Below, piece after piece: positions 10,603 through 13,194 of a stretch of DNA of 64,000 nucleotides. How positions within the stretch are numbered: position 1 is the stretch's first letter; each line of letters begins with the position of its first letter. Below the pieces are notes generated by a model. The model was not told the origin of the DNA, did not search any database, and was given only the letters and a program-made list of their open reading frames with translations. The stretch comes from Candidatus Shapirobacteria bacterium. GTDB taxonomy: Bacteria > Patescibacteriota > Microgenomatia > UBA12405 > JAUWLS01. The DNA is taken from positions 2,321 to 66,320 of the forward strand of contig JAUWLS010000002.1 in assembly GCA_030613565.1 (NCBI GenBank), in the 5' to 3' direction. A program made the position numbers and the translations under genes.

Positions 10603-11235
10603 TTATCGTTTTGTTTTTTTTGTTAAAGCCACAATTGCTCCCTCAGTTCTTCCGTTGTTAGTTAGAATATTGGCTATTTCTCTGGGGGTTACAATTTGGT
10701 ATCCGTCCCTGTGTCCAGTGTCGATAACAAGATGTCTTCTTCTACCCAATTTTCTTCTTATGTCTCGAGGAAGGGCGTCTCTGGGTATTACTCCAATAGT
10801 ATGTCCAACTGGGTGGCCAGCTCCTAGACCTAAAAAACCAACAATTCTTTTTGTCGGATGGTCTGGATTGACCTCTCTTGCTATTTCTCTGGGGCGATAT
10901 AACACTTCCTGAACACTAAAGTCTTTGTCGTTTCTAAGGACAGGGGTATAAAAAGAAACTTTTAGTCCTGCCTCACCAATATTTCTTTCAGAAATTCTTC
11001 TTCTCCATCCAGCCCCTCGAGTTGCTATCATTTCAGTAGCTCTGGGTTTTGATCCTTTTAGTGAATGAAGGGCGGCAAGTTCGCAAACATTTGCGGAGGG
11101 TATTCCTGTCTTTTCTGTATTTCTTGCTTCATGTATAGCTGAAACTAGAGCTTCTTCAATGCGTCGGACTGTTTTGTCACCGCCGGTCCTTATCCTTTTT
11201 CTATAGTTTCTTCTTGCTTGCCTTCTTTGTCTCAT
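10603..11235 (-). CDS. arginine-rich protein of unknown function, paralog A of a tandem pair
   Basis: 210 aa; N-terminus MRQRRQARRNYRKRIRTGGDKT; conserved with paralog B: ARNT, N-C-x6-H-x2-K-x-S, IGEAGL, RPREI-RE-NP, PTK-IVGFLG, GHT-G-IPR-ALPR, LGR-RHL-DT; R-rather than K-biased and visibly more GC-rich than neighbouring genes. Confidence 0.6.
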   Translation of the reverse strand: MRQRRQARRNYRKRIRTGGDKTVRRIEEALVSAIHEARNTEKTGIPSANVCELAALHSLKGSKPRATEMIATRGAGWRRRISERNIGEAGLKVSFYTPVLRNDKDFSVQEVLYRPREIAREVNPDHPTKRIVGFLGLGAGHPVGHTIGVIPRDALPRDIRRKLGRRRHLVIDTGHRDGYQIVTPREIANILTNNGRTEGAIVALTKKTKR

Positions 11236-11304
11236 AGAGTTGTATTTTAATTATTATAGGATTAAAAATTAATTTGGTGTATCTCAGATAGTTAGTGAAA
11301 CAAG

Positions 11305-11931
11305 TTACCCTCTGGTTTTTTTGAACAAAGCTAGTATGTACCCATTTGATCTTTTTTGGGTTAGAGAATCAGCAATTTCTATATTTGTTGCTACTCGTAT
11401 ACCTTCTCTTTTTTCTGTGTCAACAAGTAGGTGTCTTTTTCTTCCCAAAATCTTCCTTACCCTTCGTGGAAGAGCATTTCTTGGTATTATTCCGAAAGTG
11501 TGTCCTTCCGAATGACTTTCAAGCCTTACTCCCAAAAATCCTACTATTTTTTTGGTTGGTTGATTTGGGTTCATTTCTCTCATTATTTCTCTTGGTCTGC
11601 TTAATATGTCTTGGGCACTAAAGTCAGCATCTTTTGGAAGAACAGGAGTAACTGAAGAAACATCTAGTCCAGCCTCTCCAATTGCTCGAAACAGATTTAC
11701 TTTTTTTCCAGATATCCCTTGGGTTTGTCTTAAGCCACCTATTCTGTTTCTAGATTCTTTAAATGCGTGAATAGATACAAACAGACAGGGGTTTCCTGGA
11801 GGTTCTCCTGTTGTTCTAGTATTTCTTGCGGCTATCGCTGCGGCATCCACAGCCTTTTCGATACGCTGAAGTGTTTTGTCACCTCCAGAAATCCTTCTTT
11901 TACGAAATGATCTTCTTTTTTCTCGTCCCAT
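11305..11931 (-). CDS. arginine-rich protein of unknown function, paralog B of a tandem pair
   Basis: 208 aa, about 45% identical to paralog A by eye, same conserved blocks; N-terminus MGREKRRSFRKRRISGGDKT. Confidence 0.6.
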   Translation of the reverse strand: MGREKRRSFRKRRISGGDKTLQRIEKAVDAAAIAARNTRTTGEPPGNPCLFVSIHAFKESRNRIGGLRQTQGISGKKVNLFRAIGEAGLDVSSVTPVLPKDADFSAQDILSRPREIMREMNPNQPTKKIVGFLGVRLESHSEGHTFGIIPRNALPRRVRKILGRKRHLLVDTEKREGIRVATNIEIADSLTQKRSNGYILALFKKTRG

Positions 11932-11988
11932 AGGTTGGTATTTTAACTCTTATGGGATTTAAAATCAATTTAGTGTATATTTTAAGAT

Positions 11989-13194
11989 ATGACAGATGAG
12001 AGTGTTGGACCTGTTGGGCAAGAAGTTCTAAAAAAGGAACCTTTGAGGGTTGAAGCAGGCAAGTTAAAAGAGGTGTTTGGAGGAAAAGATGTGGAGTGGG
12101 TTGGTCCCCCTAAGAAGGATGGCAGTCCTCATTATGAAGGAGGAGGAGAGGAAATGATTAATGAAGCCGTGGAGAGATTGTTTACTGAAGAAGGCTCCAG
12201 AGAAGAGATTTTGGAATTTGTAAGAGACTTAGAAGGATTTACTTGGGAGATGTTTAGGAGGGCGACAGAAACAGGTCAAAAAAAAGAGCTTAGTTATCAT
12301 AATGCTTCAGATAGAGAAAATTTTTCTGGCCACACCGATTTGACAATGGCTAATATAATGGTTCTCCTGGCGGGGGTAGTAGAAAATGAGGAGGGTGAGG
12401 TTTTGGGTGATGTTTATGAGGGTGGTTTTTCTGCTATGTGGAAGAGAATGGGAGAGGAGGGTAGAGTTAAGTTAACAAAACAGTTTTTGGCGGTATCTTC
12501 TTCCCATGAGTATGATGATTGGTGGTTTGATGGAGATAAGGTTCCCGAGGTGGAGAAAAAGTTTTGTAATTTTTTGGGAGAAAAAGGATTGGATAGTTCT
12601 TTTTTTAAAACCATAGAAGGAAGTGGTAATGATACTGAACCGGGATTAATTGCTTTTAACGAAAGCTTAGAAGGGGCTCTGAAAAGAAGGAAAGAGAAAG
12701 GGATGGTGGATACGGCTGATTTGGTGGCAATAGCTTGGTTTTTAAGAGCGGCCGATTTTATGCAGGTATATGATGCAAACTATCTTAAAAAGGTAAGAGT
12801 GAAGACTGAGGATGGCGAAATATTGATTCCAGAAGGACCACTTGGTTTGTATTTTGAGTCGGAAGAGATAAAGCCTGGAGTGTTGAAGTGTTTTTGGAAA
12901 GAACCTTTTGGGGAAGATGAAGTAGTTGCTCCTTGGCATACTTGCATTAGTGAGCTTTTTTACATGGGAGTTGTGGAGGGAGAGGTGTTACAAGAGGCGT
13001 GGAGTGCTTTAGATAAGTATTATGGGGGGGAGGATAAAAATCCTTTTCGAATAGCAGAGAGAGAGTGCTTGGAATGGATAAAGGTTTCTAAAGATGAGGA
13101 GCACAAAAAGAGGGTTCGTAATGAAAGTAAGAGAAGACTCGAGGAGGCTAGGGGAAGTGTTCCAAAAGAAGGGTTTTATGTTTTTAAAAATTAA
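11989..13194 (+). CDS. acidic (E/G-rich) hypothetical protein, divergent from the R-rich paralog pair
   Basis: 401-aa uninterrupted ORF; composition unlike the K-rich host proteins; no motif recognised. Confidence 0.5.
   Translation: MTDESVGPVGQEVLKKEPLRVEAGKLKEVFGGKDVEWVGPPKKDGSPHYEGGGEEMINEAVERLFTEEGSREEILEFVRDLEGFTWEMFRRATETGQKKELSYHNASDRENFSGHTDLTMANIMVLLAGVVENEEGEVLGDVYEGGFSAMWKRMGEEGRVKLTKQFLAVSSSHEYDDWWFDGDKVPEVEKKFCNFLGEKGLDSSFFKTIEGSGNDTEPGLIAFNESLEGALKRRKEKGMVDTADLVAIAWFLRAADFMQVYDANYLKKVRVKTEDGEILIPEGPLGLYFESEEIKPGVLKCFWKEPFGEDEVVAPWHTCISELFYMGVVEGEVLQEAWSALDKYYGGEDKNPFRIAERECLEWIKVSKDEEHKKRVRNESKRRLEEARGSVPKEGFYVFKN

Follow-up and report, generated by a model that had tools for sequence, protein, structure and literature searches.

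What do two adjacent, strongly basic paralogous genes of a Candidatus Shapirobacteria bacterium encode, how did they come to their present place, and is the acidic gene beside them their partner? The two genes, here called A and B, stand on the minus strand of a 64,000-nucleotide stretch of contig JAUWLS010000002.1 (hereafter the window), between the PBP2 gene and a divergently transcribed gene for an acidic protein. Most likely, their products belong to a new sequence family that adopts a papain-like (clan CA-type) fold and has a putative Cys-His-Asp triad. The overall reading favored here, which is judged probable rather than secure, is that of a tandem pair of cytoplasmic, extremely basic papain-fold enzymes from a rare, unannotated family, arrived at this position after the two copies had diverged and having no partner in the acidic gene. 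A first-pass annotation of the locus had seen in the three genes a horizontally acquired module acting on nucleic acid.

The assignment to a fold is carried by an alignment and by a model. In a five-sequence alignment of A, B and three distant relatives (P0007, P0009 and P0010, 22-28% identical to A), thirteen positions are invariant: C51, G74, G90, L91, L112, P115, G133, H145, P151, R157, R160, D172 and T173. The invariant cysteine is the sole cysteine of A, B, P0007, P0010 and P0011, i.e. of five of the six members. The first-pass annotation had read the conserved Cys and His positions and the basic arms as signs of an enzyme or binder acting on nucleic acid; the invariance of both residues in the family is consistent with a probable enzyme. 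An AlphaFold2 model built on the alignment (mean predicted local distance difference test score, pLDDT, 71; predicted template modeling score, pTM, 0.68; residues 66-77 below 50) has Cys51 at the N-terminal end of helix 50-60, while His145 and Asp172 stand at the start of strand 146-150 and the end of strand 168-171, respectively. This C-H-D order and its placement on secondary-structure elements are those of papain-like enzymes, and the model is significantly similar to solved papain-like structures. The top Foldseek ranks were held by BpJOS, Josephin-2, ComA, GtgE and streptopain (E only about 3e-3), the weak matches in a viral structure library belong to the same fold class, and two different structure-comparison methods agree on it.

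The family is very rare. A word-indexed search of 5.8 billion clusters recovered the query alone. An exhaustive profile search of 1.84 billion representatives returned B and two credible distant relatives, P0007 (193 amino acids) and P0009 (197 amino acids), the remaining matches being repetitive long proteins. Searching with a profile of these four sequences brought in P0010, to whose cluster P0011 belongs. Scans of genome, viral and metagenome contigs with the paralog alignment, the five-sequence one being too divergent for that use, gave no match. Phage and plasmid collections searched by tblastn yielded none either, and neither the window nor two syntenic contigs of a relative (L001 and L002) contain another paralog. 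Pfam and NCBIfam scans of the paralogs yielded no match even at E <= 1, and Pfam, NCBIfam, PHROGs and PADLOC scans of the paralogs, the acidic protein and the distant relatives no meaningful one. Membership of a known anti-phage defence or phage family was rejected, since no PADLOC or PHROGs profile and no phage or plasmid sequence matched. The resemblance to the nucleic-acid enzymes Tpt1 and Pth that had first been noticed did not hold up either: besides the empty Pfam and NCBIfam scans, the fold matches are papain-like cysteine peptidases and no Tpt1, Pth or nuclease fold occurs among the structure matches of the paralog model.

Several points weigh against a papain-like peptidase. Pfam, NCBIfam, PHROGs and PADLOC show no sequence-level tie to a known peptidase family. 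A sequence-profile search of the PDB with the paralog family gave chance-level matches alone, and comparison of the family alignment with three solved C39 peptidase domains by hhalign (sequences taken from PDB alignments) gave a probability of 1.2%. The model comes from an alignment of five sequences and its confidence is moderate. The Gln or Asn usually found in the oxyanion hole does not appear clearly conserved: N49, at position -2 to the cysteine, is present in A, B and P0009 (three of the five sequences) and not in P0007 or P0010, and no Gln stands at -5 or -6. His and Asp are 27 residues apart in the family and 16 in C39. Finally, papain-fold triads also serve deamidases, acyltransferases and transglutaminases.

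Comparison with known systems sets the family apart from each of them. Membership of C39, C58 or Josephin (C86) found no support at the sequence level, as no profile matched and the likeness is structural only. Unlike the C39 domains of bacteriocin/PCAT ATP-binding cassette (ABC) exporters (ComA, LahT, PCAT1), A and B have no Pfam match to C39 and the family lacks the Gln that C39 conserves six residues before the cysteine. The His-Asp segment, 11 residues longer than in C39, forms a short helix with the invariant R157 and R160. A and B are moreover extremely basic and carry an Arg-rich N-terminal extension, the two N-terminal helices with their Arg-rich arm being confined to the window pair. 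They are neither fused to nor adjoining an ABC transporter, their neighbors being PBP2, the acidic gene and TopA and those of the relatives RadA and ArgRS or PolX and LemA. With the type III effectors AvrPphB and YopT (peptidase C58) A and B share 13% identity, without a Pfam match, a type III secretion context or evidence of self-processing or acylation motifs. The Josephin and bacterial Josephin-like deubiquitinases and ubiquitin C-terminal clippases (BpJOS; bioRxiv 10.1101/2024.07.24.604956) reach TM-scores of only 0.38-0.53 and no sequence similarity, the third triad residue of the A/B family being Asp; there is no evidence that the source organism meets ubiquitin-like substrates. The C39-like domains of the pseudomurein endoisopeptidase PeiR and of phage lysins differ in turn, as A and B have no signal peptide or wall-binding domain and owe their position beside PBP2 to insertion, not to conserved synteny.

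On the papain-fold reading, Cys51 at the N-terminus of its helix would act as the nucleophile, and His145 and Asp172, on neighboring beta-strands, would complete a Cys-His-Asp triad that cleaves or transfers an amide, isopeptide or thioester bond. The very basic N-terminal arms described at first are borne out, with a net charge of +8 (A) and +7 (B) in the first 20 residues. These Arg-rich helices, N-terminal to the catalytic core, could tether the enzyme to a polyanionic partner (RNA, DNA, the ribosome, an acidic protein or an anionic membrane) or, alternatively, form a pro-region. Polyanions may be bound through the basic surface of A and B. The arms and the net charge of +23/+24 are features of the pair only, the relatives not being strongly basic. 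If the reading is true, an orphan family with a handful of sightings in about 15 billion proteins gains an assigned fold and candidate catalytic residues (Cys51, His145, Asp172). The finding is real but modest: a new and very rare family with a well-known fold, occurring as a tandem pair of old origin that has recently entered a housekeeping block, with no new kind of system shown.

A and B might be exported effectors or toxins with papain-fold chemistry, delivered to a host or competitor like AvrPphB, YopT, GtgE or the bacterial Josephin-like deubiquitinases, with translocation or cell entry signalled by an Arg-rich N-terminus or by a basic C-terminal tail (KKTKR, KKTRG). Their best structural neighbors are secreted effectors, albeit with a likeness at the fold level only, and the locus is lineage-specific, duplicated and recently arrived. 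A VirB4/TraG-like ATPase gene lies 3 kb away (16423-18618), but it is a conserved resident that L001 also carries without the pair. Export is rather unlikely, because neither A nor B has a hydrophobic segment fit for a signal peptide or membrane span, no gene for secretion or a chaperone adjoins them and the distant relatives sit between housekeeping genes (RadA/ArgRS, PolX/LemA). A more speculative variant of the papain-fold reading, to which little weight is given, would have a hitherto unrecognised class of cysteine enzymes guided by an N-terminal Arg-rich helix akin to RNA-binding arginine-rich motif (ARM) peptides (MRQRRQARRNYRKRIR), the two diverged copies representing two specificities. 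Such enzymes could be proteases or isopeptidases on ribosome-, RNA- or nucleoid-bound proteins, or else cell-penetrating effectors delivered by a small-genome symbiont into its host. A cysteine protease that an Arg arm guides in a bacterium of reduced genome would be moderately interesting, the biological pay-off hinging on the substrate.

The same charge could instead point to non-catalytic binders of nucleic acid or ribosomes on a papain-like scaffold, i.e. pseudo-enzymes or nucleoid-associated proteins. A pI of 11.4 and a net charge of +24 are typical of nucleic-acid-binding proteins, and R157 and R160 are invariant in the helix inserted between the His and Asp strands. Invariance of Cys, His and Asp at 22-28% identity, with this Cys the only cysteine in five of the six members, would be unexpected in a pseudo-enzyme, and the relatives are not strongly basic, which makes mere binding unlikely. 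It is likewise improbable that the papain-like fold is an artefact of a model drawn from a shallow alignment, the true fold and function being other. The five sequences, the poorly modeled residues 66-77, the modest Foldseek E-values and the failed hhalign comparison with C39 would all fit an artefact. Against it, one fold class emerges from two different structure-comparison methods and three invariant residues fall exactly on the elements that bear the papain triad, in canonical order. Hardly any credence is left for a horizontally acquired module of A, B and an acidic partner or inhibitor, in which an enzyme or binder resembling Tpt1/KptA or Pth would act on nucleic acid, and to which the high pI and Arg-rich arms of A and B, the divergent arrangement at 57 nt, the opposite net charges (+24 and -27) and the seemingly recent arrival of the pair had lent some appeal, since the paralogs and the acidic gene do not co-occur on the other contigs compared.

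A single ortholog of the acidic protein was detected, P0003, with 40% identity. The contigs L001 and L002, which carry this ortholog, keep collinearity with the window for about 30 kb; neighboring orthologs are 62-84% identical, and the contigs read MreB, PBP2, a 15-nt gap, the acidic gene and TopA, without the paralogs. The distant relatives of the paralogs are for their part solitary, between RadA and ArgRS in L003 and between a nucleotidyltransferase-like gene and PolX-LemA-M48 in L007, and no acidic neighbor accompanies them on contigs L003-L008, a small sample. Co-occurrence thus fails both ways. There is no three-gene module, its absence elsewhere being what the first-pass annotation had itself named as evidence against one, and a false association is removed. 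The acidic gene is a fast-evolving syntenic resident between PBP2 and TopA, unrelated to the pair. It counts against an insertion of the pair that a single related lineage was sampled, L001 and L002 being near-identical, and that synteny alone would also fit a deletion in the relative.

Evidence that the pair is a late arrival comes from the strand composition of its synonymous sites. The whole window has a GC skew of +0.34, and the relative L001 one of +0.37. At four-fold degenerate sites the plus strand of the window is loaded with G and A regardless of gene orientation, and resident minus-strand genes are almost without G there (3 G vs 127 C in 5806..7821, 3 vs 120 in 16423..18618). G/(G+C) and A/(A+T) at these sites are 0.73 and 0.53 in plus-strand genes, 0.076 and 0.29 in resident minus-strand genes, and 0.29 and 0.57 in A and B taken together. 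The pair differs from the resident minus-strand genes (p = 7e-5 for G/C, 1e-11 for A/T) and in A/T cannot be told from plus-strand genes (p = 0.31). Of the two copies, B is further from equilibrium, with 8 G vs 9 C. With a ratio of nonsynonymous to synonymous divergence (dN/dS) of about 0.3 and a dS of 1.2-1.5 between A and B, the pair stems from an old duplication and both copies persist under purifying selection. Duplication in place at such a distance would have left both copies equilibrated, so an already diverged pair probably arrived at, or was inverted into, its position between PBP2 and the resident acidic gene comparatively recently. No flanking inverted or direct repeat, integrase or transposase was found around the pair. 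The case is a small worked example of how an extreme strand-specific synonymous composition can be used to place the arrival of genes in time with respect to their duplication. A replication-linked 'purine asymmetry' has been described for PolC-type genomes (PMC4070872). The composition of the window resembles it and is stronger, the likeness being one of composition alone.

The idea of a foreign origin is thus supported on other evidence than that first given for it. Four-fold-site composition and absence from L001 and L002 speak for a recent arrival of the pair, while the argument from GC content fails. The three genes had been called visibly more GC-rich than their surroundings, yet their GC contents are 0.419 (A), 0.391 (B) and 0.410 (acidic gene) against a window mean of 0.392 (standard deviation 0.037), and GC at third codon positions is lower in A (0.256) and B (0.220) than the window average of 0.345 (standard deviation 0.058). 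The preferred Arg codon, AGA, is that of the neighboring PBP2, MreB and TopA genes. A bias toward Arg and Glu had also been ascribed to all three; the paralogs are Arg-rich, whereas the acidic protein is rich in Glu (15%) and not in Arg (5.0%, with 8.7% Lys).

The coordinates of the locus are collected in the table. A and B are 51% identical over 206 amino acids (E 4e-65), rather more than the 45% or so first estimated; the reading frames and their tandem arrangement stand as annotated, and all the motif blocks that had been listed as shared are present in both. An independent Logan assembly has the same arrangement with 100% identity, and Rfam detects no RNA family in the region.

Table. Features of the paralog locus, in window coordinates.
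Feature	Position	Strand	Description
Paralog A	10603..11235	-	210 amino acids, pI 11.4, net charge +24, Arg-rich N-terminal helix
Paralog B	11305..11931	-	208 amino acids, pI 11.3, net charge +23, single Cys, Cys/His/Asp positions as in A
Acidic gene	11989..13194	+	401 amino acids, pI 4.8; neighbor, outside any module
Upstream repeat, copy 1	11229..11282	-	54 nt; predicted promoter and first codons of A
Upstream repeat, copy 2	11925..11978	-	54 nt; within the 57-nt divergent spacer (11932-11988) common to B and the acidic gene
Predicted promoter of A	11244..11272	-	TTAATT (11272-11267), 17-nt spacer, TAAAAT (11249-11244); read from the sequence, register as in B
Predicted promoter of B	11940..11968	-	TTGATT, 17-nt spacer, TAAAAT; found by promoter scan

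The duplication was rightly said to include the region upstream of each gene. The upstream element is a direct repeat whose copies are 81% identical and 696 nt apart; it occurs at these two sites only in the window, where none would be expected by chance. In the 50 nt before the two start codons, 39 positions are identical, compared with 44% of the third codon positions of A and B, so the element is conserved well beyond neutral expectation. From its boxes it is predicted to be a sigma-70-type promoter of native style, duplicated along with the gene, each copy of which would be transcribed from its own promoter. In A (ATG at 11235) and B (ATG at 11931) alike, 8 nt separate the end of the -10 box from the start codon, and neither gene has a Shine-Dalgarno sequence. 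Transcription would therefore start at or beside the ATG and yield a leaderless mRNA. The arrangement is not peculiar to A and B. In all distant relatives of the paralogs a TATAAT box likewise precedes the start codon by 6-9 nt. In the window, many genes that open a transcription unit lack a Shine-Dalgarno sequence and show a -10-like box at -11 to -16, whereas genes inside operons do have a Shine-Dalgarno sequence. More widely, in the window and in L003, L005, L006 and L007 the -10-like box of many first genes ends 5-10 nt upstream of the start codon, again without a Shine-Dalgarno sequence, which suggests that leaderless initiation is widespread in the lineage.

At the other end of the pair, the stop codons of A and of the convergent PBP2 gene (10599-10601) are 1 nt apart, with no terminator between them. 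PBP2 ends in VLRRE in the window (10597-10605, stop included) and in VLRRKEEN in L001 (9970-9985). The left edge of the inserted pair coincides with the last PBP2 codons and may have replaced them.

The acidic gene was rightly described as divergent from B at 57 nt, with a strongly acidic, Glu-rich product. At 11989-13194 in the window and 10001-11197 in L001, it evolves far faster than any other gene of the syntenic block. A PDB profile search with the protein stayed at chance level, no Pfam or NCBIfam family matched, and its AlphaFold model is unusable (pLDDT 39). Its alignment found no match in genome contigs and, in metagenomes, one unrelated protein with a short motif only. The strongly conserved motifs of the acidic protein are YHN, GHxD, HE[YV]DDWWF and AWFLRAADFxQVYDAxYL. 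Their spacing loosely resembles that of metal-dependent phosphohydrolase motifs, a likeness without profile or structure support. The metagenome protein, secreted-looking and of 486 amino acids, carries the string SSHEYDDWWF...PE[IV]E of the acidic protein (L009, 3424-3501), which may be a short shared motif or chance.

Further window-specific insertions relative to L001 lie at 15216-16104, about 18.7-24.7 kb and 26.0-27.06 kb. They include genes for PIN-domain (VapC-like) proteins at 15216..15656 (minus strand) and 26621..27046 (plus strand). The open reading frame (ORF) at 15613..16104 (minus strand) also has a non-equilibrated synonymous composition. A block of about 6 kb without family matches separates the DUF87 ATPase gene from rpsB. 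Positions 19532-22119 reach a GC content of 0.50-0.53 in a window of 0.39, are not rRNA (no Rfam match) and contain a 538-amino-acid ORF with only a weak, sub-threshold match to Peptidase_M23; by its composition, this segment has a better claim to being foreign DNA than the A/B pair.

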